From positions 1 through 58,534 of IMG/VR virus record IMGVR_UViG_3300017763_000017: a stretch of DNA of 58,534 nucleotides; one strand, given 5' to 3'. Shown here one piece after another: positions 5,634-26,159 of this stretch (position 1 is its first letter; each line of letters begins with the position of its first letter). The translations under genes were made by a program, and so were the position numbers. The notes beneath the pieces were generated by a model. It saw nothing but the letters and a program-made list of their open reading frames with translations. It was not told where the DNA came from and did not search any database. Source of the DNA: a virus. Taxonomy: Duplodnaviria; Caudoviricetes.

Positions 5634-7079
5634 TTAGAATTCTACCCATAAATCTTCATAACGAGTAAAAAGCTTCGCAGTATCTGACTCTATCCACCTA
5701 TCTCCAGTAACAAAAGTTCCCGATGGTGCATTATCAGAAACATAGACATTGCTTCCAGCAGAACCACCAGCAGAAATCGAAACTCGTACACTCTTACCAC
5801 CAACCTTATTTAGTGAAACTCCAGAACCTTCAAAAATTAAATCTTCAGGATTTCTAACAAAAGCAACATCAGAGTCATTTCCATTTTTAATTGATGACAA
5901 TCCACCACCGCCACCATAAGATGCTGCAGTGATAAAATTGTTCATTAGTTTTTCATTTACGTTACCACCAGAGAGGAGTTTTTCAAAAAACTTCTTATCA
6001 ATTGTAAATAACCCACGATCTTCTTGATAAACTAGTGGGTACTTAGCCTTTACTATAGGAGATTCACCGTCCTCTCCCTTTGGTCCAGCAGGACCGACAG
6101 AACCTTGCAATCCATCAGTTCCATCAACACCATCTTTACCTTTAGATCCCCGGGGCCCCTTTGGACCTCTTTCTCCTGTAGAACCGCGTGGTCCAGCAGG
6201 TCCCCGTTCACCTTGTTTACCGGGAACAGAATGTCCAAGAGGACCTCGAGGACCTACCGGTCCTTTTGGTCCCGTGCTACCACGATCTCCTCTTTCTGCT
6301 GCTGTTCCGGGAATACCCCGCTCACCACGTTCTCCCTGCTCTCCTTTATCACCCTTCTCTCCTTTGGGTCCAGTTGGACCGTCAGCACCATCTTTTCCAT
6401 CTTTTCCATCTTTCCCATCTTTTCCGGGTTCTCCTCTAGGACCAGCATCACCACGATCACCTCTAGGTCCAGCAGGACCTTGGTCGCCTACAGGACCCTG
6501 CTCACCCGGAAATCCTCTAGGTCCAGCAGGACCAACTAATTTTTCTTCTTTGATTATTTCAGTTACATATTCTCTTTTTGTTATTTTATCTTCTTCAACC
6601 AAAATATCCAATAGATCATTAGAACTGACTTTTTCAGTTTCATCTATAATAATTTCCATACACTCATTGAATTTTTTCTTTGATCCACGAAGTGCAACAA
6701 CCTCAGAACCATCCTCAAGAAATATTATATTCGTACCTGCATCCAGAGCCTCAGACCTATCAAATTCACTCAAAGGACTTTCTTTGTATATCCTACCAGC
6801 AAATAAATTTGAAACTGGAGGACCTTTCCACCTATACGTTTTTAATTTAGTTTCGGTATATTCATGTAAATATTCATCATAGTCGGATCGTTTTCCTAAT
6901 AATTTAACCACTGCACCAGATTCAATTTTAAAATTCTTTCCTTTAGAGAAAAAGTTAAATCCCCCATCATACTCAGATAAATTAATAGCTTCAACGTGAA
7001 TCAGATTACTCTCCTCTATAATCTGATTCTTCTGTATGGAATCATTTATGGTCTTTTTTACAATCCATTTAGACATCAT
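5634..7079 (-). CDS. Collagen triple-helix repeat protein
   Basis: Roughly 50 Gly-X-Y triplets (about 6065-6535) with two interruptions; C-terminal GDRWIESDT..WVEF module. Confidence 0.85.
   Translation of the reverse strand: MMSKWIVKKTINDSIQKNQIIEESNLIHVEAINLSEYDGGFNFFSKGKNFKIESGAVVKLLGKRSDYDEYLHEYTETKLKTYRWKGPPVSNLFAGRIYKESPLSEFDRSEALDAGTNIIFLEDGSEVVALRGSKKKFNECMEIIIDETEKVSSNDLLDILVEEDKITKREYVTEIIKEEKLVGPAGPRGFPGEQGPVGDQGPAGPRGDRGDAGPRGEPGKDGKDGKDGKDGADGPTGPKGEKGDKGEQGERGERGIPGTAAERGDRGSTGPKGPVGPRGPLGHSVPGKQGERGPAGPRGSTGERGPKGPRGSKGKDGVDGTDGLQGSVGPAGPKGEDGESPIVKAKYPLVYQEDRGLFTIDKKFFEKLLSGGNVNEKLMNNFITAASYGGGGGLSSIKNGNDSDVAFVRNPEDLIFEGSGVSLNKVGGKSVRVSISAGGSAGSNVYVSDNAPSGTFVTGDRWIESDTAKLFTRYEDLWVEF
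6390..6425. repeat. Tandem 9-bp repeat x4 encoding (GKD)4 in the collagen domain
   Basis: atcttttcc atcttttcc atctttccc atcttttcc. Confidence 0.9.
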
Positions 7080-7654
7080 GAGTCATCCCAAAATCGTCCG
7101 AATCCATTTACTCGATACATGTAATAATTAGTACCACCATCAATGGACCAGATCTTCCACATATGTATTCCGCCAGTAAGACCGTCTGTAGCATCACTAG
7201 ACAGTGATCTGTCCATATGCACAGTTCCGGTGATTCCACTATTATTGAGACCAACAATATTAAAATCTGTCGGGTTATCTGGATTATCAACAATTAGTGT
7301 TGCTTCCATAAATGAATTTGTTGTTGGGGGATTTAAAAATCTAACCGTACTAGGAAAAGTTCCAGTAGAAGCTGCAAATCCAATAAAATGAATATCAGAA
7401 ATGCTTAGATATGCATCATATGTAAGTCCAACAGATGTCAAACCCTGACCTAGTATGTTTACGTTAGGATATTCTTTTTCTACCTTCGTATCAGAAACCC
7501 AAGCACCAAGTCTACCATCAAAAAACCATTCCTGAGTAAACCCCTTATTTAGTCCATCAGGATAAGTGCAACCGGATGTCCATCCAAAAGGATAAACATC
7601 ACATGTTGCACCATCAACACCGTTTATTGCAGGAAATCTAATTGGATCCGTCAT
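7076..7654 (-). CDS. Hypothetical virion-associated protein rich in G-x-T
   Basis: 192-aa ORF, first gene after a late-type promoter, stop overlaps next start (ATGA). Confidence 0.55.
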   Translation of the reverse strand: MTDPIRFPAINGVDGATCDVYPFGWTSGCTYPDGLNKGFTQEWFFDGRLGAWVSDTKVEKEYPNVNILGQGLTSVGLTYDAYLSISDIHFIGFAASTGTFPSTVRFLNPPTTNSFMEATLIVDNPDNPTDFNIVGLNNSGITGTVHMDRSLSSDATDGLTGGIHMWKIWSIDGGTNYYMYRVNGFGRFWDDS

Positions 7655-7685
7655 TAATAGATATATCCCTATAACTTATACCTAT

Positions 7686-7693
7686 TATTTATG
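7686..7693 (-). promoter_or_regulatory. T4-type late promoter (CATAAATA) ahead of the fibre cluster
   Basis: TAAATA core of the gp55 consensus TATAAATA, overlapping the upstream stop codon. Confidence 0.55.
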
Positions 7694-8969
7694 CTTTTTG
7701 TTTCGGTCTCTTTTTATATCCACGTTTTTCTGGAGCTTTAGTAGGCTTTTTATTCATATTGGGTTCTTTTTTAGGTGCTCCAACATGAGGTGGTAAATTA
7801 TTCTCTGCAATTTTTCTCTGTTCTTCTATTTGTTTCATAACTTGCTCATATGATCTAAAATTCTGAAGAACTCTTTGTTTGTGCATAGGAGGAATGAGGT
7901 TATTTTCTAGAAGAATTTTACTTGCTTCATATCCAACCTGTGCTTGATTTGCATAAAAGGCAGTCGCAGAAACTTCATCCAAAATACCCCACCTATAAAC
8001 ATCATCCTGAATAAACAAAATGTCCTGTTGTGGATAAGGAATATCCAATGCTATCCTAGCATACATGTATGCTGCAGCAGGCATTTCGTTCATTCTATAC
8101 ATCCTAGACAAGAACCATAAAGGTTCAGCCCTAATAGGTCTATAATTAAATGCATCAACAAACGCTGCTGCGGTTTCTTCTAATGGTCGATTCATTAATC
8201 CTTTAAGTATACCACATCTAAGTTTTGCATAATATACTTCTTCTGCCCAACCACCCAATTCAACTCTTCTTTCGTATGCAACAAGAGACTTCTCAAACTG
8301 CTGAGAGTCAAAGTAAGACTGTGCTAAGTAGAATTGATAACGATCATTTTCGGGTTCATCTAGTATAGCCCTTTCTAGAACTTCCGCATCTCTCTTATAT
8401 TTTTCTATAGGGGTAATACCAACATTACGATTGCCTTCAGTTCTTGCAATTACTTTATAGTTACCACCAAGTTTGCTAGCTTTAATTTCTTCTCTTGGTT
8501 TGGCATCAGTTGTTGCATATTCGTGCAATATACCAGCATATTTCCAGTCCAAATCAAGCTTAAAAATTTGGTTTCTCCACCAAGTAAAATCACCGCGACC
8601 AATATTTAATGAATATGCATCATGGTTCATTGGTTTTGGAAACTGAAAATCACCTTCCACATAATCATCTGCATCAATAACCCATGCGTATTCGGCATCA
8701 GATTTTTTTGCATTTATTAAAGATTCTGACCTAGAACCCATTTTACCGCCATGATCACCAAATCCTTTCCAGTCTGATTGATGAACCTCACCGGGAACTT
8801 TTAGTTCTTCCATAGTCTTCTTGATAAGATCCTGTGTTCCATCGGTGGAACCAGTATCAGTAATATCATATCTATCAACATATTTGGCAATAGAACGAAG
8901 ACATTGTTCTATAATATGAGTTTCATCTTTCACGATCATACACAAGGTAACTTTAGGACGGTCATTCAT
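7689..8969 (-). CDS. Glycosyltransferase family 2 with TPR repeats
   Basis: LCMIVKDE..I..CL, DTGSTDGT, DADD (DxD), Y.G.LHE; TPR-like RYQFYLAQSYFD..YYAKLRCG..P.RAEPL. Confidence 0.9.
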   Translation of the reverse strand: MNDRPKVTLCMIVKDETHIIEQCLRSIAKYVDRYDITDTGSTDGTQDLIKKTMEELKVPGEVHQSDWKGFGDHGGKMGSRSESLINAKKSDAEYAWVIDADDYVEGDFQFPKPMNHDAYSLNIGRGDFTWWRNQIFKLDLDWKYAGILHEYATTDAKPREEIKASKLGGNYKVIARTEGNRNVGITPIEKYKRDAEVLERAILDEPENDRYQFYLAQSYFDSQQFEKSLVAYERRVELGGWAEEVYYAKLRCGILKGLMNRPLEETAAAFVDAFNYRPIRAEPLWFLSRMYRMNEMPAAAYMYARIALDIPYPQQDILFIQDDVYRWGILDEVSATAFYANQAQVGYEASKILLENNLIPPMHKQRVLQNFRSYEQVMKQIEEQRKIAENNLPPHVGAPKKEPNMNKKPTKAPEKRGYKKRPKQKA

Positions 8970-8992
8970 TATATACTCCTATAATCTTTCAT

Positions 8993-10066
8993 TTAAACTT
9001 CAATCAGTTCTTTTAATTTATTTATATCTACTTTCCAGCTGGAATTTATACCCCCAAATATCGAAAGAGCATTTTTGTGTGTCTCTACTTCTTCTTTTCT
9101 GTCTACAAATTCTGTTTCATTGAAATGAATCAAGTCGGTCCTGTTCATGGCAAACTCCAACCTTCTATTAACATCAAAGAACTCAGGGCTGTTTATCGAC
9201 AACACCCTACAATCCGGTCTACAAAATAGAGCATTTGACATCCCACCACCAATCGGTCCTGCTACAAAATCTGCATTACGAAACAATCCAATTTTATCTT
9301 CCATACACAAGTCTTCAGTGAAAACTTCTTCGAATCCGTTATGAATAAAAAATTCCGCTACTTCATCTTCGTTAACACATTTCCTCTGTTGTGTATAATC
9401 AGTTCCGATATTTTCATTCCTTTTCTTTGTCCACGTTCTTCTTGAAACATAGACTTTCTTCACATCGGATCTAGTTCCCTCCATCGAATCTAGTATTTCG
9501 TATAAAGCAGGATGCGGTGGATCCAGAGACATTCTATTGTGAGTTAAAGAGGAGCCAACAAAAACTCTAAAGTAAGACACATCATCTCTCAAAAAAACTA
9601 AATCATTTTTTGCTATACCTAATAGTTCTAGAGTTTCATATACGAATGGATATAGATCATCTTTTCCTTCGGGGGGACTAATTAACAATTTCAAATTTGG
9701 AATTTGTTTTTTAAGATCGAAGTAGGAGTATAAGTAAGGAACCGTATCATACAACCAGTGAAAATAATTAGCACAATTGTACACAAAGTAAAAAACCGGT
9801 GTTGTAATCGATCTAACATCCCAAAGTCTTTTTTCAGATGTTTCATATTCCATTGTGTCTTCATAGACGGTTCCCCTACCCAAAGACATAAATTTTTCTA
9901 TAGTGGGAAGTAAAAGTTCATCGTTGGTGTGCAATAACGGTTGGGGGTAATTTAAAGAAAAACCCTCCACTGTACAATCTCTAAACTCACCAATCTTTAT
10001 GTTTCTTTTTTCGGAAACAGTTCTTATGGATCCGGATTGGCTTTTATCCCAATAATCTATTTTCAT
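8993..10066 (-). CDS. Glycosyltransferase family 61 (DUF563)-like protein
   Basis: NYFHWLYD..P.L, KVYVSR, R..VNEDEV, LF.NADFVAGP.GGGMSN.LF. Confidence 0.8.
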   Translation of the reverse strand: MKIDYWDKSQSGSIRTVSEKRNIKIGEFRDCTVEGFSLNYPQPLLHTNDELLLPTIEKFMSLGRGTVYEDTMEYETSEKRLWDVRSITTPVFYFVYNCANYFHWLYDTVPYLYSYFDLKKQIPNLKLLISPPEGKDDLYPFVYETLELLGIAKNDLVFLRDDVSYFRVFVGSSLTHNRMSLDPPHPALYEILDSMEGTRSDVKKVYVSRRTWTKKRNENIGTDYTQQRKCVNEDEVAEFFIHNGFEEVFTEDLCMEDKIGLFRNADFVAGPIGGGMSNALFCRPDCRVLSINSPEFFDVNRRLEFAMNRTDLIHFNETEFVDRKEEVETHKNALSIFGGINSSWKVDINKLKELIEV

Positions 10067-10781
10067 AATTCAATAAATCCTCTGGTGTTCCCCAGCAATG
10101 ATACTCATCAACATCGAATATACTCATGTCTAAATGACCTATACTATTAAAAATATTATCAATGTAATATTCACCATTACTCTTGATACCATCTTTGTAT
10201 ATCCTAGAAACCCCATCTAAAAAATCACCGGCACGTCGGAAAAAAAACGTACCCACTATGGCACGATTGTTAAATGGATCATCGAAAAAATTTTGTTTTA
10301 CATGTGTTTTTGTTAACCTAACGCCCGATGTTTCTAACCAACTATAAGAACTTGGATTGTTGGAAAACGCAGCGTTGTTTATGGTTGACCAGACAACAAC
10401 ATCAGAGCCTTTCTTCACACTCTCGTACTTTTTATTGGACCACTCTAAACCATAATCACAACAACTTATTGTGATTGAATCTTCTTCATGTATTGACGAT
10501 TGTAAAATACCAATTTCAGCCGTACAAGCTTGTCCCATAGTTGTTTTATCTAAAATAACAAACTCTGATTCTGGATAATAGTCCTTTATAATTTCGTCTA
10601 TAGAATGTTCTTCTATATGTTCTGTTCTACAGACAAAGACATGGGAGTCTGCTTCTGGAAGACAAGAAACGGCTTCTATAATCATGGGTTTGCCGTTAAC
10701 TTCAATTAAAGGTTTTGGTGTTTCTACACCAACACCAGAGAACCTAGAACCTTCACCTGCTAAAGTTATTAGATTTATCAT
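10044..10781 (-). CDS. Sugar-phosphate nucleotidyltransferase (NTP_transferase family), divergent copy
   Basis: LAGEGSRF...PKPLIEVNGKPMI, T.GQACT, NGEYYI, WGTPEDL. Confidence 0.85.
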   Translation of the reverse strand: MINLITLAGEGSRFSGVGVETPKPLIEVNGKPMIIEAVSCLPEADSHVFVCRTEHIEEHSIDEIIKDYYPESEFVILDKTTMGQACTAEIGILQSSIHEEDSITISCCDYGLEWSNKKYESVKKGSDVVVWSTINNAAFSNNPSSYSWLETSGVRLTKTHVKQNFFDDPFNNRAIVGTFFFRRAGDFLDGVSRIYKDGIKSNGEYYIDNIFNSIGHLDMSIFDVDEYHCWGTPEDLLNYENRLLG

Positions 10782-11236
10782 TTGAACGACTCCACATAAT
10801 CAGAACAAACTCCATAGACCTTTGTTTCTTCCCAACCTAGTAATTGTTCTTTCGACAAAAGTGGTATTATACACTTTTCATTTATCATATCTAAATCGTG
10901 AGCCCATATTAACCCATTACTTATCATAGCATATCTTTCATTTTCATGAAAGAATATCCTAAAGCCTGTATTAAGTAGATAACTAAATGCTTGAAAATTC
11001 TTACAATGAATCCACACACGGTCCTTTATGTTTTCTAAAAATAACAGGGGAACCATCCAATCCGGTTTATCGTGACCCAACCAAATACCACTGTCCCACC
11101 AATGAACATCGATCTCAACATCATATCCAGCAGTTATTGCCTCCTGAATATATGATGGAGAATTTTCTCTATCCGGATTAACTCCGTTCAAATTTCCTCT
11201 ATGGGATATCAATTTTATTTTTTGTTTTGTCATCAT
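10778..11236 (-). CDS. Glycerophosphodiester phosphodiesterase (GDPD)-like small protein
   Basis: ISHRGN..G..ENSP.YI..AI..GYDVEIDV..LGHD..WIHCKN..GVCSDY; start placed at the MM codons 11236/11233. Confidence 0.8.
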   Translation of the reverse strand: MMTKQKIKLISHRGNLNGVNPDRENSPSYIQEAITAGYDVEIDVHWWDSGIWLGHDKPDWMVPLLFLENIKDRVWIHCKNFQAFSYLLNTGFRIFFHENERYAMISNGLIWAHDLDMINEKCIIPLLSKEQLLGWEETKVYGVCSDYVESFK

Positions 11237-11498
11237 AAAAAATATCGTAATATGGTTTATCACATCTCAGTTGATGATACTTAACGCCCCAACTTTTTAA
11301 CTGTTTCTCTGTATGATCGAACCAATCAATTCCACTTCTACTTCCCCTAGCTGTCCAATAAACTATTTGGTTACCCTCGTCAAATAGATGATTGATCTTC
11401 TCTATTATTTTTTTCCGTGGAACGGATCTGTGGTAGTCTCTCGGATTATCTGGCGTATCACAGATGGTTTCATCAATGTCAACAAAGATCACTTGCAT
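11199..11498 (-). CDS. Small HAD-superfamily phosphatase (EcbF/BcbF capsule-phosphatase-like)
   Basis: DIDETIC motif I, WTARG motif II, KPYYDIFYDDK motifs III/IV. Confidence 0.85.
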   Translation of the reverse strand: MQVIFVDIDETICDTPDNPRDYHRSVPRKKIIEKINHLFDEGNQIVYWTARGSRSGIDWFDHTEKQLKSWGVKYHQLRCDKPYYDIFYDDKTKNKIDIP

Positions 11499-12306
11499 GG
11501 TATTCTTTCCAGTAACGATAACACTTTACTAGGTCTTCCTCTGAGTTCACTTGTCCCTTGGTCAAAATACTTACCCATGACTCAAAATTTTCTACTTCTT
11601 CCGGTGTTCCCATTACAGTTGCAAATGGGGTATCATAATATCCAACCCGCAAACCATCTCTAACGAAAAGATTATAAACGAGCGTAACGTAATACTCACC
11701 ATTATAACTAACATTTTCTTCTATTGCAACGTCAAAATACTTCTTTATATCCTTCCCTTTAGAAAAATAATAAGTTCCTGTTGATGCGTGTTCGTTTATG
11801 GGATCATCGGTGTAACACTCTTTCTCTTTTATTTCTCGTACCAATCCATCTTTGGTTTTCATAAAAGCCATCTTGGTATGATTTAAACTGTGAGGGTGGA
11901 ACCCACTATGAGAAATCACACACCCATCTAGTTCATTATTCTTAATGTGCCGTATAAAATCGTTTCTGTCCCAAAGGTATGGGTTATCACAATATGAAAC
12001 TATAACCTCTTCATCATCCTCTATATGATCATATACCTGTTTCACACTATAAACAGGCCCTAATTTATGAGGAGGCATAGAAACGATTTTTGCATCAGGA
12101 ACAAGACCAATCAACACTTCTCGCATGTTTGTATTTTCGAGGTGATCGTCGTTACACACAAAAACATACTCATCAGTCGAGGAAAACATTTCAAGAATAT
12201 ATTCTATAATCATCTTCCCATTTACCTTAATCAGAGGTTTGGGATCAGAATAACCCTTGTCGATAAATCTCTGTCCAGATCCAGCCATTGGTATGATAAT
12301 TTTCAT
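11479..12306 (-). CDS. Sugar-phosphate nucleotidyltransferase (NTP_transferase family)
   Basis: IIIPMAGSGQRF..GY..PKPLI.VNGK, YCD, IKEK, ASTGTYYF, NGEYYV, MGTPEE. Confidence 0.9.
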   Translation of the reverse strand: MKIIIPMAGSGQRFIDKGYSDPKPLIKVNGKMIIEYILEMFSSTDEYVFVCNDDHLENTNMREVLIGLVPDAKIVSMPPHKLGPVYSVKQVYDHIEDDEEVIVSYCDNPYLWDRNDFIRHIKNNELDGCVISHSGFHPHSLNHTKMAFMKTKDGLVREIKEKECYTDDPINEHASTGTYYFSKGKDIKKYFDVAIEENVSYNGEYYVTLVYNLFVRDGLRVGYYDTPFATVMGTPEEVENFESWVSILTKGQVNSEEDLVKCYRYWKEYHASDLC

Positions 12307-13706
12307 AGTACACCCATTCTATATTTTTCCTCTTCCATACTTAATAATTTCTCAACTTCATTGTCACATAAAAATCTTGGAGTTAGTCCAACATCACCCT
12401 GTATGTATGTCATATACTGGTTTAAATTTTGCATTTTGTCTTTGAGGATGACCGCATCAGGAAACAGAAAACCAACTGGTTTGTCGAATTCTACTTTCGA
12501 AAAAGTTTTAAATGCCTTTGAATTTTTAATTAACCACTCTTTACACAACTGATTCACACGAAGAGAGTTATCAAATACTTCAATAAAAGATGAACCACTA
12601 CAAATGAGTCCATGATTTTCTAGTAATATAATTTTATTTTCCTGACTAATTTTACCCAACATCAAAGAAATGTCAAAAATATTTGACAAGGATTCACCCG
12701 GAGTAACATATGGAACATAGTCGTAATCATACTCTTTAAGAATTTTTGAAATAATTTCCTCGGATTGTTCGGAACAAAGTATAGTATTCAAATAAATCGG
12801 ATGGGTATGGAAGACAACAGGCCACTTAATCTTGGTATGTAATTTTACTTCCATAGATGGTCGTTCCCGACTCTCGTCAATAGAACAACCATTAGAATCA
12901 CATGCACTAAAACCATCAAGCATAAGAACCTCACTCATGTCTCTGCCGGATGATGTTATGATAATTTTATCCTCGAACTTATAAGAAACATTACCACCAC
13001 CATGTTGAACGAGGTCATATTCAAAAGAAGTCTTCTTACACAACGAAAGAAATTCTCTGTGCATATCGTACAATCTCTTAACCCGTTCAAGTAGTTTCAA
13101 TGACTTATCCGTTTGTGCAGTATATTCTAGATGAACTGTTCTGTCTTTTTTCTCTTCGAACCTAACTACGGCATCAGCATTTTCTTTTTGAGGTTGAATG
13201 TATAATAGTTCATCTTTTTCTCTTCTATCCAAGGTATCTTCAACCTGTTCAACGGTATATCCTCTTTTTTGTGTATCGCGGTTCATTTTCCACTGACGTT
13301 TAAGTCCCTTGTCAGTTTCAACAAAAATTTTTATATCCGATATTTCATTTACATCACCAAACAAGGCATGAAGTCCCTCATAAACAATATATGATTTTGG
13401 TTCAATCAACTCTGGAGGATCAAACTTTCCAGTATCATGGTTATACCTGCACCGTTTTATTGGGTTGTTGTTTGACAGAGAAATCAAATCTTGATATCCA
13501 CCTTCGATATTATTAGACTCGGGATTTAAATGTGTTGTATTCTTCCAGTTTTCATCGTTTCTTTCCCACAAATGTAAATCATCACCACACAGATTTACAA
13601 CTTTGTCAGGACCAATCACTAAAGAAATCAATTCTGACAAAGTTGTTTTTCCAACACCAGAGCTACCAGAGAGTGTTACTATCGTATTCAATGAATGCTC
13701 ATCCAT
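12303..13706 (-). CDS. Phosphoribulokinase-like kinase fused to class II aldolase/epimerase domain
   Basis: GSSGVGKT, DDLH..ER, YNH.TG.FDPPE, EGLH, WK..RD..KRG, YIQPQK..AD (PRK motifs); then GGGNVS, ITSSG, RPSME..LH, HTHP, LENHGL (class II aldolase Zn site). Confidence 0.85.
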   Translation of the reverse strand: MDEHSLNTIVTLSGSSGVGKTTLSELISLVIGPDKVVNLCGDDLHLWERNDENWKNTTHLNPESNNIEGGYQDLISLSNNNPIKRCRYNHDTGKFDPPELIEPKSYIVYEGLHALFGDVNEISDIKIFVETDKGLKRQWKMNRDTQKRGYTVEQVEDTLDRREKDELLYIQPQKENADAVVRFEEKKDRTVHLEYTAQTDKSLKLLERVKRLYDMHREFLSLCKKTSFEYDLVQHGGGNVSYKFEDKIIITSSGRDMSEVLMLDGFSACDSNGCSIDESRERPSMEVKLHTKIKWPVVFHTHPIYLNTILCSEQSEEIISKILKEYDYDYVPYVTPGESLSNIFDISLMLGKISQENKIILLENHGLICSGSSFIEVFDNSLRVNQLCKEWLIKNSKAFKTFSKVEFDKPVGFLFPDAVILKDKMQNLNQYMTYIQGDVGLTPRFLCDNEVEKLLSMEEEKYRMGVL

Positions 13707-14350
13707 TTCCCATCGTATTCAAAAACTCTATTTTCTCTTGACCACTGACGTACTCCCATTACAAATTCATCATTACTTTGATATAAAGTTTTTTTGAAGT
13801 TGAAGGGTTTTTTAATAACACCAACGTCTCTAATACTAGCATCTAAAGTATCATGTGGATTTTTTTCTAGGAACGTCTTTTCCTGCGTTGTGAAAATTTT
13901 TCTAAAGATATCAGGGGAAGTAATACCAATGTTGTCAAATATACCCCAAGGTAAATCCGGTGCATAGTAAGTGTTATGTTCCATAATACTTGGTATTTCT
14001 ATACTATTCAACTCACAGTCAATTCGATGCCTAATAATACAATCAAACGAATCTAAACCCTCTACCATATCCACATGTTTACACAGGATCTCGATACAAC
14101 GAAACATCCTATAATTGTTACCATTATGGTTTCCTATAGTTTCCAGTATGGGATCGATAGAAATCAGTTCTATGTTTAAGTCACTGTTGTCTATGAGAGT
14201 TTTGAGTTTTTTATATTCTTCAGTTTCATATGTGAGGGCATAATGTGTACAATCATAATCAGATAGGGTTGACAGAGTGGTTTTGATATTTTCAAAAACA
14301 CGATCCGCATTAGGTCTAATTACGCCTGTTATGATACTACAAATTTTCAT
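13688..14350 (-). CDS. Hypothetical protein, possibly glycosyltransferase-like
   Basis: MKICSIITG.IR start and FDCIIRHRID motif; inside the glycan island. Confidence 0.45.
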   Translation of the reverse strand: MKICSIITGVIRPNADRVFENIKTTLSTLSDYDCTHYALTYETEEYKKLKTLIDNSDLNIELISIDPILETIGNHNGNNYRMFRCIEILCKHVDMVEGLDSFDCIIRHRIDCELNSIEIPSIMEHNTYYAPDLPWGIFDNIGITSPDIFRKIFTTQEKTFLEKNPHDTLDASIRDVGVIKKPFNFKKTLYQSNDEFVMGVRQWSRENRVFEYDGKWMSIH

Positions 14351-14377
14351 TACCCATTTAACCCCATGTGTAAAATA

Positions 14378-14974
14378 TCAACAACTTGAAAAATGCAATT
14401 TTGGTCTACCATCATTTGGGTTCTCTGTACGTATTAGTTTTAGATTACACAGGGAACATATTTCAATTATTTTATTTTTTTCTTTTTCGTAATCTGTATC
14501 ATCATGTTGTTCTACTTCTAGATGATTTATTTTTAAATTACTAGACAACCCCTCTAGTATAGGAACTTCATATCCTTCTGTATCTAGATAAAAATGTTCA
14601 ACTGTTGAAATATCTAAAGAGTCTAGAATTTCACTTATAGTAAATGCAGGCACTACAATAGAAGATCGTGAATAATTAGTTGGGTTATTTGTTTGTTGCA
14701 CCGAACCCTCCAAACAATTCATTAAACTCCAATGTTTGTGTTTATACAATGTAACAAATTTCTTTTTATATGAAGGAGAAACTAAAGCACAATTAAAAAA
14801 TATAGTTCTTCCGTTATTTCGATTTCTAACACACTCAGAAAATACAACTGGATCGGGTTCTATTAATATACCAACATAATCAGGATTGTCAATTAAAGAA
14901 ATACTTCTACTTTGATCAATTCCATTATTTGCACCACATTCAATATAAATTTTTTTATTTTCGTATAATGTCAT
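14378..14974 (-). CDS. FkbM family O-methyltransferase
   Basis: IECGANNG..QS, GILIEPDP, LDTEGYEVPILEG. Confidence 0.85.
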   Translation of the reverse strand: MTLYENKKIYIECGANNGIDQSRSISLIDNPDYVGILIEPDPVVFSECVRNRNNGRTIFFNCALVSPSYKKKFVTLYKHKHWSLMNCLEGSVQQTNNPTNYSRSSIVVPAFTISEILDSLDISTVEHFYLDTEGYEVPILEGLSSNLKINHLEVEQHDDTDYEKEKNKIIEICSLCNLKLIRTENPNDGRPKLHFSSC

Positions 14975-15777
14975 CTTAAATTATCCACAATAGTTTTTGT
15001 TACAGTAAAAGAACCTTCAGGTGAAGCGTTCCTATTATACCAGTCCTGTCCCGCATCGTGCATGTCTTGCCACTGACTCTCACTGACTGAATCGATTAGT
15101 GGTTTGACTTGACTGGGATAATCCACACGAAGGAAATGAACTCCTTCTTTCATTGGTTCATGGTATGTATTATCAACTTCAGTAGCAAAGAGTGGGACGA
15201 CACCCATACCAAGAAGTTCGATCTCCCGATTGCACTTGGGACCATACCCAGCAAGACATAGTCCAAACTTCGAGTGTCGTAGTTTTTCTAGGTACTCTTC
15301 TTTTGTAAATGGATAGTGGTCTGGTCCCGGTTTGTCAACAGGACAATTAAAGAGTTTTATACCCGATCGTTCCCAGTCTTTGTTTTTTCTGTTCTGATTC
15401 TGAACATTATTTTCAACCTTACCCAAGAAGATAGATTCTATGTCCCGATCTGTATAACCCAACAACGGAGTTTTTCTTGCTTCCATTAGGCGGCGAGGAC
15501 TTCTAGCCCAGAAGATCCAAGGATGACAATTTGGATGCATTGGGACAGTATTACCAAAAATACCATGACGGAATTTGGGAATATGTCGATCATCTAATCT
15601 GGGAAAATCGTATAGTAATACATCACCACACTCTTCTACCCAACAAAAACAGTCTGGACTATCTTGCACTTCACATAGACCAAGTTCTTCCCATATATCA
15701 ACTAGTTCTCTGAACGTATCTCCACAATGACCGTAGCATGTACCATTAGCATCAGTATTACCTTTTAGAATTTTCAT
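14971..15777 (-). CDS. Exostosin (GT47)-like glycosyltransferase
   Basis: EYLEKLRHSKFGLCLAGYGPKCNREIELLGMGVVP matches the GT47 C-terminal motif. Confidence 0.7.
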   Translation of the reverse strand: MKILKGNTDANGTCYGHCGDTFRELVDIWEELGLCEVQDSPDCFCWVEECGDVLLYDFPRLDDRHIPKFRHGIFGNTVPMHPNCHPWIFWARSPRRLMEARKTPLLGYTDRDIESIFLGKVENNVQNQNRKNKDWERSGIKLFNCPVDKPGPDHYPFTKEEYLEKLRHSKFGLCLAGYGPKCNREIELLGMGVVPLFATEVDNTYHEPMKEGVHFLRVDYPSQVKPLIDSVSESQWQDMHDAGQDWYNRNASPEGSFTVTKTIVDNLR

Positions 15778-16207
15778 TTATTACTCCTTGATATTCTAAA
15801 ATATCAGTTGTTGAATATTTACCAAGTCTAGGAAAGAAACTAACCTCATCCACAAATTCAGATCCAATGACTGTCTGGTGTTTATATTCTTCTCCTACTA
15901 CCATAATATCTGGTTTATGTACTTCACTAATCAATCCCTTAAGTTCTTCATCAGTAGAAAACACATCAACAACATCAATCAGTTTCAATGCCCTTAATAT
16001 TTCTACTCTATCTCCAATAGTATTAAAGGGTCGGTCATTTCCCTTCAAAGATTTTACTCTTTCATCAGAATCTACACCAACAACAACCACACCTTCGGGT
16101 CCAGCAAGTTCAAAGCATCGTTTAAACATTTCAATATGACCACGATGTAAAATATCAAAACACCCATTGGTCCAAACAACTCTACTTTTTAAATCAGAAA
16201 AACTCAT
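15758..16207 (-). CDS. Cytidylyltransferase family (RfaE/HldE domain II or TagD-like)
   Basis: TNGCFDILHRGH (HxGH), VGVDSD..V..LKG.DRP.N, YSTTDI. Confidence 0.9.
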   Translation of the reverse strand: MSFSDLKSRVVWTNGCFDILHRGHIEMFKRCFELAGPEGVVVVGVDSDERVKSLKGNDRPFNTIGDRVEILRALKLIDVVDVFSTDEELKGLISEVHKPDIMVVGEEYKHQTVIGSEFVDEVSFFPRLGKYSTTDILEYQGVINENSKR

Positions 16208-16719
16208 TTATTTTCCTTTTCACCAAAAACCATAAAACTATTATTTAAATCAACACCAGATTTAAATATATTACAATAACCATTGTCTTTCATATAATCA
16301 TAAATTATATCAGAAGTGAATATATTTAAATGTTTTTTATTATTCCACGGTCTCCAATATTCCTGACTATAGTCGGGTAAGTATAAAAATAAAACTCCAC
16401 CACCTTTCAATTTACTAAACCAATATTCCATTGTGTCAACCCACGATGGAATATGCTCTAAGCAATGAGAAGAAAAAATATAATCTAAATTTTCATACGG
16501 AAAATTAGAAGCATTATATTCATTAATAGCGGGATCAACTAGATTAGATCCGGGAAATGCCCATTCCTTTTTAGCACACCCTATATCTACCCCGATTCCT
16601 CGACATACATGTTGAGCAAAAGGTATTGCAAATTTAGATGCATTACCCTCACTCTGAAATTTTGGATATAGTTTATTTTTAAATTCTATTGTTTCAATTG
16701 TCATTTTATAATATTCCAA
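16204..16719 (-). CDS. Class I SAM-dependent methyltransferase
   Basis: GVDIGC, DYIFSSHCLEH, LK.GGVLFLYLP. Confidence 0.85.
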   Translation of the reverse strand: MEYYKMTIETIEFKNKLYPKFQSEGNASKFAIPFAQHVCRGIGVDIGCAKKEWAFPGSNLVDPAINEYNASNFPYENLDYIFSSHCLEHIPSWVDTMEYWFSKLKGGGVLFLYLPDYSQEYWRPWNNKKHLNIFTSDIIYDYMKDNGYCNIFKSGVDLNNSFMVFGEKENK

Positions 16720-17390
16720 TTATTCTTCCATATAGTTTTAGTCCACGGTATATTGTTTCTAACATCCACAAAGTATTTCTTCTTGTCTTTAAATTCTTTT
16801 ACTGTTTCTATGAAATGACAAAAGGAACTATCTATGCAGTAAATTTCACTTGATTCATTTGCAATTTTATACCAATCAAATATATTATAACCGGACATGG
16901 GTTCTACTACAATATGTTTATCTTGGAAAGATATCAACTTACCCGAAGAACCAGTATCATGTACTAAGATATATGGTGTTTCACTCACCTTTAATTCAAA
17001 TAATGAATTTTCTTTCTCTAAGTTTCTAGTAAATGATAAATTCCACCTGTTTTCATATGAAACAGAAGATAATTTATATTTTGCTTCTACAAAATTAGAA
17101 GCATATTCGGTATTCATATGATAACTATTTACTTGACTTCCCGGAAATCCAAAACTTAAATCTATTACCTTATCATAATCACCAGTCATTTTATAGCACT
17201 CAGAAACACAATTACCTATACCAGAAAAAATTTCAATTGGTTTAACGTAATCTATATTGTTAAATGTATCTGAGTATTCAGAAAGAACCGGCCAGTAAAC
17301 CTCATGACCAAGATCTTTATAGAACTTAGCAATCGGCAAACAGATAAGAATATCGCCGAGTCTACCCGGCTGTATGATTAAAATTTTCAT
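16701..17390 (-). CDS. GT-B fold glycosyltransferase, GT9-like N-terminus
   Basis: MKILIIQPGRLGDILICLP, YDKVIDL, IDSSFCHF. Confidence 0.65.
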   Translation of the reverse strand: MKILIIQPGRLGDILICLPIAKFYKDLGHEVYWPVLSEYSDTFNNIDYVKPIEIFSGIGNCVSECYKMTGDYDKVIDLSFGFPGSQVNSYHMNTEYASNFVEAKYKLSSVSYENRWNLSFTRNLEKENSLFELKVSETPYILVHDTGSSGKLISFQDKHIVVEPMSGYNIFDWYKIANESSEIYCIDSSFCHFIETVKEFKDKKKYFVDVRNNIPWTKTIWKNNWNIIK

Positions 17391-17412
17391 CACTCACCAA
17401 TAATATAGCACA

Positions 17413-21391: not shown

Positions 21392-22116
21392 GAAGTAACC
21401 CTAACCAAAATTGTGGTATCGTTAAATCTTCCTGTTGCTTCCCTAGATTTTGTTTTACACCTAATTAACTCACCGCGAATGTTAGCAGGTCCAATCTCTG
21501 AAAATCGAGGGATCATCTTATCCGCAGTCCTTCCAATCTTTTTCACGAAGGACTTTTCAGAATTAAAATTCTGCAGAGTAGTTCCCTTAATTCCAAATGA
21601 ACTATCGGTTTCGTAATAAAAGGCGTCACCAGTTTTTATATTATATGCAACAAAAGACTTACAGTCCAAAATCTTGACAGGATCAAAAGAATTTACCAGA
21701 ACTTTTCCAAACATCGAATTGTCCATATACTTCAATGTTTTAACAATATCCTCTGGTTTTTTGACCTTCTTCTTTTTGGTAATCTTGGAGTAAGAGGCAA
21801 AGTCATCACAAATGTCAGAAACAAATTGATGAAGTTTTTTCAACTTACCCGGACTAAGAAAATCATAACCTTCCACTAGATCAGGATCTGTATGATCTAT
21901 AGCCTCAGTCAATTCATCCTTGAGATTAGTAAACCACTGTGCGATATACTTTGCCTCAGACTTTTTGATTTTGTATGTTTTAAGAAGATTAATCAATCTC
22001 TTCTTTTTATTATAGTCATTGTTTTTTAGATTTTCGATATATCCATCAATCCATGACTCTACATGTTCTGCGACTTCTTCTGCTTCTTTTGTTACTCTAG
22101 TTCCTAGTTTAGTCAT
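21388..22116 (-). CDS. Hypothetical protein of a type common in T4-like phages
   Basis: D.DLVEGY.FL, IKGTTLQNF, TGRFNDTTILVRV C-terminus. Confidence 0.65.
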   Translation of the reverse strand: MTKLGTRVTKEAEEVAEHVESWIDGYIENLKNNDYNKKKRLINLLKTYKIKKSEAKYIAQWFTNLKDELTEAIDHTDPDLVEGYDFLSPGKLKKLHQFVSDICDDFASYSKITKKKKVKKPEDIVKTLKYMDNSMFGKVLVNSFDPVKILDCKSFVAYNIKTGDAFYYETDSSFGIKGTTLQNFNSEKSFVKKIGRTADKMIPRFSEIGPANIRGELIRCKTKSREATGRFNDTTILVRVTS

Positions 22117-23684
22117 TGTTCTTTCCTAAAGACATATACTGGTTCATATTTATAATATTTGCTTTCTACCATGCAGTAGTTTTTACATTTAGGCTTACCA
22201 TCATCCCCAACTCTATTTTGTCCGGGCATTCCCTCCATAGCCATCTTTAACTTATCAACGTAAACTAATCCATTTTGTTCTACAAACTTTCGAGAATCTT
22301 CTTCTAGGGGAAGGTATTCGCCCTTAATTAGAATATCTGCTATATTCCACAGAAGATATCCACCACATTTTAGCATATCACAACACGTTTGTAAAGTAGG
22401 TTTTAGGAAACCATCTCGCCACGACTCATATGTGCTGCCATATTTTTTGTAAGATTGGTTCTCGTCTTCACTATATGCCTCCCGGTTAAAGTAAGGAGGT
22501 GAAGTAAATACAATATCTATATCACCACGATGCTTTAGGAAGTCTTCATTTTTGCCTATTTCTTCTGAACCGAGTCTGTAAATCTCGTAACTATTTGTGT
22601 GGGAGAAGAATGAATTTCCTCTGTATGTCTTAGAGTTATAAAAATGTGCCACATGCGAGTAACGACAAGTTCCATCAGGGAAAAAATTATCAGGATTGGG
22701 GTCAGTACCGATATAGTGAACATCACGGTTGTCCCGAACAGACATAGCACCCAAAATCCTGCCACCCCATCCAGCAGAAGGGTCGTAAATTTTAATTTGT
22801 TTCTGACTTGGTTTAGTGAATCGCTCATATAAGTATTTAGCAGTTCCCGGTGGAAAATTCACTGCTGGTTGAATATAACCAATTCTAAATGCCTTAAATC
22901 CAACCGGAAAAATTTTACCACCCCTTTTGTATATACGAATCGAGTACACCCGATCGTCTGACATATTTTCAATATCGAATGTAGAGTGGTGTCTGTACCT
23001 TAGCCAACCCATATCATTATACTCTGAGACCTGATCTGCCGTGAGTTGCAATATATCAGATTGCTCAACTTGATTGTAACTACTACTCAACCCATCTCGG
23101 ACCTTAACCTCTTCCAAGAAGAAATCTCTATCTCCGAATATTTCAGGTCTAGTAAAAAATGATTGTATCCAATCAGTTGCCTCGGAAACAGAGATGACAG
23201 AAACCTTTCTATTATCCTTCAGTGCGGAAACAGCATGGTCATAAAAGGAGTCGCGTCTAAAATGACGCAAGCTCCCCTTATAGACCTGATCAAGTCGGTT
23301 AGGATCTGATACCAGATCATAAATGGAATATCCATTGTCTGTATCAGTATAATTGATTCTGGTCTTGAACATATTCTCAAAGAATTGATCAACTTCAGAT
23401 CCTATCCGAGACTTGTTTATAATCACATCACCCTCAGAGGTCCCCAGTTCGTCTGTGTGCTCATATTTACTGACAGGAAAGGTCTCTAGTAGATTCCACT
23501 TTTTAATTATGTCATCTATCGACTTTCCAGTTCTAGGAGGACACCCGTGACTATCCCAAATATCAGTAAATGCCTTTCTCATTTTGATAACCCAATCCAT
23601 AAACTGATCGGGTGTCATCTCTAAAAGATCTTCAAAATTTACATTTACATCACTATTAATAATATAGTCGTTGCGTTCGTACAA
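22113..23684 (-). CDS. Amino (N4-C/N6-A) DNA methyltransferase-like protein with long N-terminal extension
   Basis: Motif I YDPSAGWGGR, YIGTDPN, motif IV FTSPPYF..E.YS; TTG start with GGAGG RBS. Confidence 0.85.
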   Translation of the reverse strand: MYERNDYIINSDVNVNFEDLLEMTPDQFMDWVIKMRKAFTDIWDSHGCPPRTGKSIDDIIKKWNLLETFPVSKYEHTDELGTSEGDVIINKSRIGSEVDQFFENMFKTRINYTDTDNGYSIYDLVSDPNRLDQVYKGSLRHFRRDSFYDHAVSALKDNRKVSVISVSEATDWIQSFFTRPEIFGDRDFFLEEVKVRDGLSSSYNQVEQSDILQLTADQVSEYNDMGWLRYRHHSTFDIENMSDDRVYSIRIYKRGGKIFPVGFKAFRIGYIQPAVNFPPGTAKYLYERFTKPSQKQIKIYDPSAGWGGRILGAMSVRDNRDVHYIGTDPNPDNFFPDGTCRYSHVAHFYNSKTYRGNSFFSHTNSYEIYRLGSEEIGKNEDFLKHRGDIDIVFTSPPYFNREAYSEDENQSYKKYGSTYESWRDGFLKPTLQTCCDMLKCGGYLLWNIADILIKGEYLPLEEDSRKFVEQNGLVYVDKLKMAMEGMPGQNRVGDDGKPKCKNYCMVESKYYKYEPVYVFRKEQ

Positions 23685-24447: not shown

Positions 24448-26159
24448 TTTAATCTACTAAAATTATTCTTCTTATAAAAAGTTAAACTATTATTAAAACG
24501 ATCTGCTAGTTGATCACTCTTGTGCGTTATGACAAAAATATTACTTTCGGTGGACAGATCCCTAAGAACTTTCATGAGATCGTCCACACCAACAGAGTCC
24601 AGAGACGAATCAAATATTTCATCTAGTATTAATAAATTGCAGTGAGCACTATTTTTTATCTTTGCAATCTTTCTCCAAGCAAGAAGAATTGCTAGATCAA
24701 TTCTAGATTTTTCACCTTCACTAAAATTCATGTAACTAAAAGTGTCCCTATGTCTACTTTTAATTTCTTCGTTAAATTCTTCATCTAATGAAAAGGAAAC
24801 AAAGAAATTCATATGAGTAAGATATTTATTTATGATCTCGTTAATTACAGGTAAGTAATTTTTTATGATTTTTGATTTTATACCAGAGTCTTTGAGTAAT
24901 AAAAACAACACATCTAAATTTGACTTTAATTCTTTCTGTCTTACCACTCGTTCTTTGTGTGCATATAAATCAGATTCGTAATCTCTCTGTTTTCCTTCAC
25001 ACTCCAATATGTTTTCATCAAAGCTACTGGATTCATTTTCAGATTCTAGTAGAGAAGTCATATACTTATTGGCAGCATTTATTTCACTATTCTTTTCTCG
25101 TATCGACTGCTCTATATTTTTACTAACTAAAAATTTCTGCTTCAATTCATCTAAAGAACTTTTCAATTCAGTGTAATCAGTTTTAAAAGAAATTATACTA
25201 GATTCTATTTCATCTTTAGATTCATTTAAATCAGATAATTTATCTCCTTTAAACTCTTCCGTAATTTCCTGACTGCATGTTGGACAGACGCTGTTCTCGT
25301 CATAGAATGAAATAGAACTAATAGTCTTTTTCTTATCCTTTATCAAATTAACAATAGAACTTTCAAATTTACCCAGTTTATTCTCTATCGTTTTCTGTTC
25401 ACTTTCTACCTCAGAATACGGCAATAAAGAATCGGTTAATTGCGATAGTTCCTCATTAAAAATTTTTATTTCATTCTTTAGTTTCTCTACTTTGTTTGTT
25501 AGGTTGGAGGCGCTTTCATTTTTCTTATCCGAAAAAGATTTAATAGTTTGTTCCTGAACTTCTATCTTTTCGGTTAGAACTTCCATTTTATTTTGTAACT
25601 CTCGAACTTGATTTTTTGTCATGGACAATTTAGCTTTGATAATTTGGTTCATTGCACTGAATATATTAATGTCTAAAATATCTTCAATCACTTCCCTTCT
25701 ATCCACAGCAGAAAGTTGCATGAAAGGAACAAATGAAGAACTACCAAGAGTTACAATCTGAGTGAACGACTTATAATTCATTTTTAAGATCTGATCTTCT
25801 AAAAGTTTTTGGTAATCTTTAGCTTTTGCAGACTGTTGCAGTAGTTCTCCATTTTTGTGAATCTCAAATTTCTTAGGTTTTAAACCACGAACAATTTCAT
25901 AGGTGTCACCATAAATTTCAAATGTTAACTGCACAACACAATTTTTATTGTTCATTGTGTTGATAAGCTGAGGTATATTTATTTTCCTAAATGGCTTACC
26001 AAACAAAGCAAACGTAATAGAATCTAAAAGAGCATAGGATTTACCGTGACCATTTGATCCAGAAACTAGGGTCATGTTATCACTACAAAAATCTATCTCA
26101 GTAAAATAATTACCAAAAGAACCGAAGTTTTTAAATTTAACAGTTTTAAACTTTATCAT
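24444..26159 (-). CDS. 46: Recombination endonuclease ATPase subunit gp46 (Rad50/SbcC-like)
   Basis: FKNF.SFGN, GSNGHGKS, CPTC zinc hook, coiled coils, FSEGEK, LILDE.FDSSLD. Confidence 0.97.
   Translation of the reverse strand: MIKFKTVKFKNFGSFGNYFTEIDFCSDNMTLVSGSNGHGKSYALLDSITFALFGKPFRKINIPQLINTMNNKNCVVQLTFEIYGDTYEIVRGLKPKKFEIHKNGELLQQSAKAKDYQKLLEDQILKMNYKSFTQIVTLGSSSFVPFMQLSAVDRREVIEDILDINIFSAMNQIIKAKLSMTKNQVRELQNKMEVLTEKIEVQEQTIKSFSDKKNESASNLTNKVEKLKNEIKIFNEELSQLTDSLLPYSEVESEQKTIENKLGKFESSIVNLIKDKKKTISSISFYDENSVCPTCSQEITEEFKGDKLSDLNESKDEIESSIISFKTDYTELKSSLDELKQKFLVSKNIEQSIREKNSEINAANKYMTSLLESENESSSFDENILECEGKQRDYESDLYAHKERVVRQKELKSNLDVLFLLLKDSGIKSKIIKNYLPVINEIINKYLTHMNFFVSFSLDEEFNEEIKSRHRDTFSYMNFSEGEKSRIDLAILLAWRKIAKIKNSAHCNLLILDEIFDSSLDSVGVDDLMKVLRDLSTESNIFVITHKSDQLADRFNNSLTFYKKNNFSRLK

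Follow-up and report, generated by a model that had tools for sequence, protein, structure and literature searches.

What is a kinase resembling phosphoribulokinase (PRK) doing among the glycan genes of a phage? The window, which is the whole 58,534-nucleotide stretch of IMG/VR record IMGVR_UViG_3300017763_000017, is a 58.5-kb record of a marine T4-like myovirus with a CheckV completeness estimate of 32%. Five genes at 10044-13706, all on the minus strand and arranged head-to-tail, encode a fusion of a PRK-like kinase with a class II aldolase-fold domain, two nucleotidyltransferases (NTs) referred to here as NTPa and NTPb, a small phosphatase of the haloacid dehalogenase (HAD) type and a putative glycerophosphodiester phosphodiesterase (GDPD)-like protein. 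Comparisons of sequences and models lead us to predict, with a probability of roughly 55%, that these genes are a phage copy of a widespread gene set for ribulose-phosphate-based sugar activation that serves glycan synthesis. A preliminary description of the locus had reported five overlapping genes and proposed a route from them to an activated ketose; the observation is confirmed, each gene overlapping its neighbour, and the interpretation is partly supported. The extent that it gave to the system, the five genes, is correct as far as it goes but too small, as the conserved unit takes in the adjoining GT61 glycosyltransferase gene and probably also orf220 on the other side. The features of this unit are as follows.

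8993-10066, minus strand: GT61-family glycosyltransferase (Pfam PF04577, 1e-16; phrog_29695, 1.2e-130)
10044-10781, minus strand: NTPa, the second sugar-phosphate NT and a paralogue of NTPb (PF12804, 8.5e-5)
10778-11236, minus strand: putative compact GDPD-fold protein of ~150 amino acids (motifs HRG, ENS, EIDV and GHD; AlphaFold2 model)
11199-11498, minus strand: minimal HAD phosphatase of 99 amino acids (DIDET motif; phrog_1238, 7.6e-25)
11479-12306, minus strand: NTPb, a sugar-phosphate NT (Pfam PF12804, 3.3e-12)
12303-13706, minus strand: kinase-aldolase fusion of 467 amino acids (PF00485 and PF00596)
13155-13682, minus strand: PRK-like kinase domain, residues 9-184 of the fusion (PF00485, 8.9e-36)
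12534-13046, minus strand: class II aldolase-fold domain, residues 221-391 of the fusion (PF00596, 4.3e-20)
13688-14350, minus strand: orf220, a probable GT-A-like (DUF7796-like) glycosyltransferase (neighbours in an Atlas structure search)

For the GDPD-like gene, the open reading frame (ORF) listing gives a GTG start at 11263, but the ATG at 11236 is the more likely start.

The kinase would provide the entry step. Residues 9-182 of the fusion match the PRK/uridine-kinase family PF00485, and the best PDB matches of the domain are cyanobacterial PRKs (1.9e-36 to 8e-33). The PRK motifs listed in the preliminary description are all present (D42-D43-x-H45...R49, Y88-N89-H90, E110-G-L-H113, W139-K140..R143-D144 and R148-G149). 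The motifs for ribulose-5-phosphate (Ru5P) and ATP align with the cyanobacterial PRK structures 9qko and 6hzk, and the motif residues are invariant or nearly so in 46 family members. In the sections of a study of plant and algal PRK structures drawn on here, these residues are assigned to Ru5P phosphate binding and catalysis (bioRxiv 10.1101/422709). Both domains of the fusion occur in all 120 of the best homologue clusters listed, with at least 120 clusters in existence, and the fusion is therefore no assembly artefact.

Since PF00485 spans both PRK and uridine kinase, and JGI and PGAP label some homologues 'uridine kinase', the domain might instead be a uridine/cytidine-type nucleoside kinase that boosts the supply of nucleoside triphosphates to the NTs. 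We consider this extremely unlikely. The PRK-specific Ru5P-binding residues are conserved, the domain scores 190.6 bits with the NCBIfam PRK model against 68.7 bits with that of uridine kinase, and the PDB search gives 1e-36 for PRK against 4e-6 for uridine kinase. A tree, which had been suggested as a check, was built with eight cyanobacterial PRKs and two uridine kinases, the rows of loci L091 and L103 being dropped for want of a match to the kinase query. It separates the module kinases and PRKs from the uridine kinases with 100/100 support, although with those two uridine kinase rows only, and places the module kinases as sisters to the eight PRKs (91/78 support), not nested inside the PRK clade. 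The domain is best described as a predicted PRK-type enzyme acting on Ru5P, not a nucleoside kinase, and it would phosphorylate C1 of D-ribulose-5-phosphate to give ribulose-1,5-bisphosphate (RuBP).

By analogy, the HAD protein would then remove the 5-phosphate to leave ribulose-1-phosphate, which can close to a furanose. The window protein has the DxDxT nucleophile motif expected of a HAD enzyme and approaches Pfam HAD_PNKP (2.5e-4, 21.6 bits, cut-off 27.6); its earlier assignment to the HAD group stands, while the suggested link to EcbF/BcbF-type enzymes is weak (TIGR01689, 23.1 bits, cut-off 162). Bacterial and giant-virus versions of the gene set carry a HAD of a different type, which matches the RuBP 5-phosphatase model NF053830 at 8.4e-53, below its family cut-off (179 versus 330 bits). 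The proposed sequence of C1 phosphorylation followed by loss of the 5-phosphate thus has a direct precedent. An RuBP 5-phosphatase has been characterised in haloarchaea, where, in the sections of that work drawn on here, it yields ribulose-1-phosphate for cleavage by a FucA-like class II aldolase (PMC9700705).

The second domain of the fusion clearly belongs to the Aldolase_II family (PF00596, 72.8 bits, cut-off 22.2) and is followed by a conserved C-terminal extension up to residue 467. Its His ligands are intact, as had been noted: the zinc ligands H300, H302 and H365 are invariant in 46 homologues, together with E286 and the phosphate-site residues G237-G238-N239-x-S241 and S253-G254. The best PDB matches are 3m4r and FucA (4c25), and among NCBIfam models the domain comes closest to those for the aldolase part of bifunctional rhamnulose-1-phosphate aldolase/short-chain dehydrogenase proteins (8e-17), with FucA also among the best. 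In AraD, the L-ribulose-5-phosphate 4-epimerase, an Asp replaces the FucA-type Glu at the PSxE position. The window domain has Glu286 there and matches the AraD model NF005123 at 6.5e-5 only, placing it outside the AraD subfamily. The idea that it acts first, as an epimerase, found no support. The aldolase gene is wholly absent from L009, an 89.5-kb phage record in which the kinase, HAD, GDPD and NT-NT genes are contiguous, so the aldolase-fold step looks like optional tailoring and not core activation chemistry. The domain would tailor the ketose-1-phosphate, most likely by epimerisation towards a xylulose-type sugar. The kinase tree, the RuBP-phosphatase match of the bacterial HAD and the haloarchaeal precedent together suggest the order kinase, HAD, aldolase-fold domain.

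Both NTs look catalytically competent, because each family keeps a complete but different set of RmlA-like motifs. NTPb passes the PF12804 threshold (47.3 bits versus 27), is 40-52% identical to its bacterial, phage and giant-virus copies, and belongs to a family of which 90 sequences retain the motifs GxGxRF..PKPLI, YCD, FHPH, EK, GTYYF and WGTP; of the two NTs, it is the one never missing beside the core. NTPa falls below that threshold (23.2 versus 27 bits), and the motifs of its type, GxGSRF..PKPLI, GQA, DN, SvK, FyF, EfYvD and WGTP, are conserved across 80 domains. The two are paralogues with ~26% identity. PDB sequence searches with either one returned generic pyrophosphorylases only.

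For the GDPD-like protein, no Pfam family was found at E<=0.01, including the GDPD family PF03009, and NCBIfam gave no match at the thresholds used; a profile of five phage copies reached the PDB GDPD structure 3i10 at an E-value of 0.021 over 49 residues only. The GDPD motifs HRG, EN[ST], ExD and HD are nevertheless visible. H12-R13-G14, E24-N25, E41-x-D43 and H55-D56 are invariant in the five phage copies, and among 20 copies from bacteria and giant viruses there is little or no variation in HR, ExD and H-D-P. The AlphaFold2 model of the window protein (pLDDT 78) found only GDPDs among its ten best Foldseek PDB matches (E 4e-4 to 6e-3, TMq ~0.5), and its bacterial counterpart of 200 amino acids is modelled as a compact GDPD barrel (pLDDT 95.6, best Foldseek E 7.5e-8, TMq 0.72). 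An hhalign comparison joins the window protein to the bacterial family over the motif region (E 3.1e-5, 73% probability). These proteins, at 150-200 amino acids, are shorter than GDPDs of ~240, and PGAP names a copy on an Escherichia coli plasmid as PI-PLC/GDPD family.

The argument that these enzymes form one pathway comes from their distribution. Profile searches with NTPb turned up relatives in 197 species-representative bacterial and archaeal genomes, including Flavobacteriia, Leptospiraceae, Bacillales, Clostridia, Campylobacterota, Melainabacteria, Bdellovibrionota, TM6, Cloacimonadota and others, and relatives on 158 viral contigs; the NT-NT fusion matched 3,656 protein clusters. The bacterial operon is stereotyped. 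It begins with a protein of ~690 amino acids in which a PMT_2-like GT-C membrane domain precedes the PRK-like kinase, continues with a 233-residue HAD, a 360-residue aldolase-like protein and a 550-residue NTPb-NTPa fusion, and ends with GtrA (PF04138, 2.9e-21), an ArnC/PpgS-like GT2 and the 200-residue GDPD-like protein. Full 10-kb flanks were available for 39 bacterial loci. The NT-NT fusion is present in all 39, the kinase, aldolase and GT2 in 37 each, the GDPD-like protein in 35, the HAD in 33 and GtrA in 25. The same set is found across many bacterial phyla and on an E. coli plasmid, as well as in phages and on contigs of giant viruses; the recurrence that had been put forward as a check on the five genes is overwhelming.

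Several fusions join the parts directly and place them in one network. In addition to the kinase-aldolase fusion, a HAD-aldolase fusion is seen by Pfam in the giant-virus locus L005 (L006 shows corresponding HAD and aldolase matches), a GDPD-NTPb-NTPa fusion occurs in both of these loci (E ~1e-106), and the GT-C-kinase fusion is found in bacteria. Elsewhere among phages and giant viruses, the kinase also bears a fused glycosyltransferase-like domain. NTPb and NTPa lie on one polypeptide in 39/39 of the bacterial loci and in 24 of 42 viral ones, including phages of the L007 type. The GtrA, ArnC/PpgS-like GT2 and GT-C domains that follow the bacterial module genes argue for a glycosyl-donor role.

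These linkages bear on a quite different reading, in which the kinase, the HAD and the aldolase serve catabolism or host takeover, as a shunt that drains ribulose phosphates to dihydroxyacetone phosphate (DHAP) and glycolaldehyde, the NT and glycosyltransferase genes being unrelated. Cyanophages are known for redirecting carbon of the Calvin cycle. Haloarchaea perform this conversion with these three enzyme types according to the sections of PMC9700705 drawn on here, and the consulted part of PMC11421388 interprets viral 'PRK' calls in terms of the Calvin cycle. A shunt would leave unexplained the near-universal linkage and fusion to the NT-NT and GDPD proteins, as well as the GT-C-kinase fusions and GtrA/GT2 neighbours in heterotrophic bacteria, and it would lose its aldolase in L009 and its kinase in cyanophage Bellamy. 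We regard it as very unlikely.

When 5,426 E. coli genomes were searched for distant DNA similarity, the module was matched in two plasmids only. One of these, a 33-kb plasmid of a stool isolate (L092, NZ_CP145712.1), carries the full bacterial module at 6022-14984, with NT-NT, GtrA, GT2, GDPD-like, GT-C-kinase, HAD and aldolase-like genes and a 586-residue membrane protein, and adjoins a frameshifted IS26 transposase gene. This E. coli plasmid copy is mobile.

Viral loci show greater variation. Of 158 loci found, 80 were kept and 42 had full flanks. In these 42, the GDPD-like protein is present in every case, which secures its place as a core member, as does its fusion to both NTs in giant viruses; the aldolase is present in 39, the kinase in 36, the HAD in 36, NTPa in 27 and GT61 in 25. 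All seven viral loci that were found through the kinase-aldolase protein also encode NTPb, a GDPD-like domain and one or another type of HAD. NTPa and GT61 co-vary: both occur in 25 loci, neither in 15, NTPa only in two and GT61 only in none. Sixteen loci have the fusion architecture of the window, and since 14 of the 16 lack NTPa and GT61, the window and a near-twin contig are composites of a short core (kinase-aldolase, NTPb, HAD and GDPD) and an NTPa-GT61 pair.

Among 50,697 phage records, tblastn with the fusion protein matched the aldolase part only, in the cyanophage Bellamy (L091) only; no kinase-domain match was found in these records, and the five genes had no match at the DNA level. 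Bellamy carries the NT-NT, GT61, aldolase, HAD and GDPD-like genes without the PRK-like kinase. Its host, Synechococcus, makes its own RuBP, and the missing kinase is compatible with supply of RuBP by the host PRK. Near the module, Bellamy gene 206 (6779-7936) encodes a fusion of an NT with ribose-5-phosphate isomerase B (PF02502, 3.9e-32), which could supply or use Ru5P; GHMP kinase, cupin and NT genes form another group downstream.

Two replacements for NTPa in the 15 loci that lack it were rejected. A NadE-like PP-loop enzyme is present in only 2 of the 15, and an RfaE-domain-II-like NT of the kind found in the window at 15758-16207 in 0 of 15. An unannotated ORF of ~300-340 amino acids directly upstream of the kinase-aldolase gene (e.g. 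8988-10010 in L004) occurs in 9 of the 15 loci without NTPa compared to 1 of the 27 with it, and is a candidate alternative transferase. In L004, a relative with 74% identity, the module is followed at 12869-15734 by a NadE-like PP-loop enzyme (PF02540, 2.4e-51), a GT2 and a UDP-glucose dehydrogenase, which may be a uronamide-forming set.

The co-variation of NTPa with GT61 fits a role for the pair in the last two steps of a single pathway, and fits equally well the supply by NTPa of a different donor to GT61. One reading built on the second option is that there are two sub-modules: NTPb makes a nucleoside diphosphate (NDP)-1-linked pentulose of the CDP-ribitol or CDP-glycerol type, from which the GDPD-fold enzyme transfers or trims the pentulose phosphate, and NTPa feeds GT61 with another, ordinary nucleotide-sugar. 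We think this unlikely. In its favour, the viral NTPa follows GT61 and not the core, the short version of the module retains only NTPb and the GDPD protein, the phosphate of ribulose-1-phosphate is on a non-anomeric carbon, and enzymes of the GDPD/phospholipase D fold perform transphosphodiesterification. Against it stand the NTPb-NTPa fusions counted above and the joining of both to GDPD in giant-virus loci, the ArnC/PpgS-like GT2, GtrA and GT-C that come after the bacterial copies and indicate a true glycosyl donor, and the finding of no CDP-alcohol phosphotransferase, TagF-type or LicD-type enzyme in Pfam scans of the window and related loci.

If the ketose phosphate were isomerised to an aldose-1-phosphate before nucleotidyl transfer, the product would be a nucleotide-activated aldopentofuranose (ribofuranose or arabinofuranose). 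The isomerase would be the GDPD-fold barrel or the aldolase-fold domain, acting on ribulose-1-phosphate or RuBP in the reverse direction of MtnA or ribose-1,5-bisphosphate isomerase. Plant GT61 enzymes use UDP-pentoses, in keeping with such a donor. In addition, both NTs have canonical sugar-1-phosphate NT motifs and match GlmU, RmlA and AglF models, a kinase-phosphatase-isomerase-NT route would explain the 15 viral loci with one NT, and nucleotide-activated ribofuranose has never been demonstrated according to the sections drawn on here of a review (PMC7685785). An aldopentofuranose product is nevertheless improbable: the module contains no member of the known aldose-1-phosphate/ketose-1-phosphate isomerase family, the GDPD-like protein retains the phosphodiesterase catalytic set HR, ExD and HD, the aldolase-fold domain is dispensable in L009 and cannot be an essential isomerase, and the second NT is left without explanation.

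For the preferred reading, activation of a ribulose-derived ketose, co-occurrence and fusions suggest that NTPb and the GDPD-fold enzyme would process the ketose-1-phosphate and that NTPa would make the nucleotide-sugar used by GT61. The late chemistry that we favour would run from an NDP-1-ketose through a ketose-1,2-cyclic phosphate and a ketose-2-phosphate to an NDP-2-ketofuranose. In this walk of the phosphate an NT, a GDPD-fold enzyme working through the cyclic phosphate to the ketose-2-phosphate and a second NT would act in turn, and it might be how ketofuranosyl donors, for example NDP-xylulofuranose and NDP-ribulofuranose, are generally made. It is attractive because the phosphate of ribulose-1-phosphate sits on a non-anomeric carbon and because no other member accompanies NTPb as faithfully as the enzyme with a phosphodiesterase fold, and the gene order in the window, NTPb-HAD-GDPD-NTPa-GT61, agrees with the scheme first outlined for the locus. 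We infer this walk purely from such considerations and hold it as a tentative, rather doubtful proposal, whereas the entry steps and the unity of the pathway are well supported.

Several observations weigh against the ribulose-phosphate pathway or parts of it. The kinase score of 190.6 bits is below the NCBIfam PRK cut-off of 236 (NF005655), on which true cyanobacterial PRKs exceed 490 bits, and the C-terminal half of PRK is absent, the match covering profile positions 8-193 of 326 in place of the full-length architecture of ~330 amino acids. The 99-residue HAD of the window is not homologous to RuBP phosphatase, and its proposed substrate comes from its position only. Genuine aldolase, dehydratase or isomerase activity is also conceivable for the aldolase-fold domain. 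For the window protein, the identification as a GDPD derives from motifs and a model of medium confidence, with pLDDT 78. NTPa and GT61 are absent in 15 of the 42 viral loci, mostly those with the fusion architecture of the window, so that the one-NT version is stable; nothing obliges the NTs to work in sequence, and they could make two different donors. Lastly, hydrolysis of a ketose 1,2-cyclic phosphate would chemically favour return to the 1-phosphate.

The probable user of the activated sugar is the GT61 protein (61.9 bits with PF04577, cut-off 27), homologues of which adjoin the module in loci L005-L009; the Bellamy copy is 52% identical. On the other side, orf220 overlaps the kinase gene by 19 nucleotides and has no Pfam match. 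Atlas structures similar to its model include the N-terminal part of a viral cluster of 491-residue proteins (TM 0.74), all of whose members carry PF00485, as well as DUF7796 and GNT-I clusters, and the N-terminal domain of the L007 kinase also falls among DUF7796 clusters. Comparison of orf220 with the N-terminal domain of L007-type kinases was not significant by BLASTP or hhalign (E 0.17). As a lead only, orf220 is possibly the split-off equivalent of the N-terminal domain that the kinases of some other phages and of giant viruses carry.

These genes are part of a larger glycan cluster on the minus strand, flanked by RegA and a collagen-like protein (5634-7079). It contains a GT2+TPR protein, GT61, the five-gene set and orf220, together with an FkbM methyltransferase, an RfaE-domain-II-like NT, another methyltransferase and a further glycosyltransferase. 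The collagen-repeat protein (PF01391, 8e-26) lies just downstream of the GT2+TPR protein (7689-8969), which weakly resembles SunS-type peptide glycosyltransferases (TIGR04195, 9e-7), and the pair is found again in L003, L004 and L126. The collagen-like fibre may be a glycosylation target in the phage. Upstream of the module, at 14378-17393, is a second set of sugar genes that is missing from most related loci, with the FkbM methyltransferase, a class I methyltransferase, unannotated ORFs and the RfaE-domain-II-like adenylyl/cytidylyltransferase (TIGR02199, 8e-31, below cut-off).

The remainder of the window is of T4 type, with homologues of RegA, the gp44/62 clamp loader, gp45, gp46/47-like proteins, UvsW, gp23, gp20, gp18, gp17, gp15, gp6 and gp32; its major capsid protein is at most 59% identical to those of T4-like cyanophages. 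A SET-domain protein (26156-26773; PF00856, 3.8e-6) is encoded between the gp46-like and gp47-like recombination nuclease genes, and a 523-residue protein with a C-terminal N6/N4 DNA methylase domain (22113-23684; PF01555, 8.6e-7) lies beside replication genes.

With this module, the activation of ketopentoses for glycan synthesis, unresolved so far, becomes testable. In the sections of a review drawn on here, no genes for the synthesis of NDP-xylulofuranose were found in the E. coli O95 and O97 O-antigen clusters (PMC7685785), although both O95 and O97 contain xylulofuranose. The sugar is also reported in chlorovirus capsid N-glycans in the consulted part of PMC9614988, and in neither setting has it been assigned a donor pathway. 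Our search of the open literature, with subscription-only papers and supplements outside its scope, found neither a description of this gene set or pathway nor CDP-, UDP-, GDP- or NDP-ribulose or -xylulose donors. If true, the phosphate walk would be a nucleotide-driven mechanism with no described precedent in sugar-nucleotide biosynthesis, present in many bacterial phyla, phages and giant viruses. Because the module is widespread, reconstitution would annotate thousands of genes together. A further consequence is that "PRK" calls in viral metagenomes should not by default be taken as Calvin-cycle auxiliary genes, a reading made in the consulted part of PMC11421388.

None of the closest characterised systems combines these parts. 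In the NDP-heptose pathways (GmhA, HldE/HddA, GmhB and HldE/HddC), a sugar phosphate is converted to a bisphosphate, which loses its distal phosphate to a HAD enzyme before activation by an NT. The module has the same logic of kinase, HAD phosphatase and NT, but the NDP-heptose kinase acts on the anomeric carbon of an aldose and the PRK-type kinase would act on C1 of a ketose. Since that carbon is non-anomeric, the module needs extra chemistry to arrive at a glycosyl donor, for which the GDPD-fold enzyme and the second NT are the candidates.

With class II PRKs of cyanobacteria, plants and archaea, the module kinase shares Walker A and the DDxH..R, YNH, EGLH, WK..RD and RG motifs, and its identity to the cyanobacterial PRK structures is ~40% over residues 9-184, as estimated by eye. 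It differs in having only the N-terminal half (~185 residues), the C-terminal half being replaced by the aldolase-fold domain. In relatives, GT-C or GT-A-like domains precede the PRK-like part, and the context is one of glycan genes, not of the Calvin cycle.

The haloarchaeal non-carboxylating pentose bisphosphate pathway (Sato et al. 2022, PMC9700705, in the sections drawn on here) has the same pairing of an RuBP-acting HAD with a FucA-like class II aldolase-fold enzyme and the same ribulose-1-phosphate intermediate. That pathway is catabolic, is fed from nucleosides by ribose-1,5-bisphosphate isomerase and ends in DHAP and glycolaldehyde, whereas the module has a PRK-like entry kinase, two NTs, a GDPD-fold enzyme and glycosyltransferases, and the window HAD is of another type. 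Neither ribose-1,5-bisphosphate isomerase nor ribose-1-phosphate kinase was seen in Pfam scans of the window and related loci. The module is not a member of the haloarchaeal pathway, the phosphatase and aldolase pair alone being held in common.

Finally, the bacterial relatives, and only these, resemble Gtr-type three-component glycosylation in having GtrA, an ArnC/PpgS-like GT2 and a PMT_2-like GT-C domain. Unlike in Gtr systems, the bacterial GT-C domain is fused to the first enzyme of the pathway, the kinase, and in the phage and giant-virus versions the Gtr-like export arm is replaced by soluble GT61 and DUF7796-like proteins.

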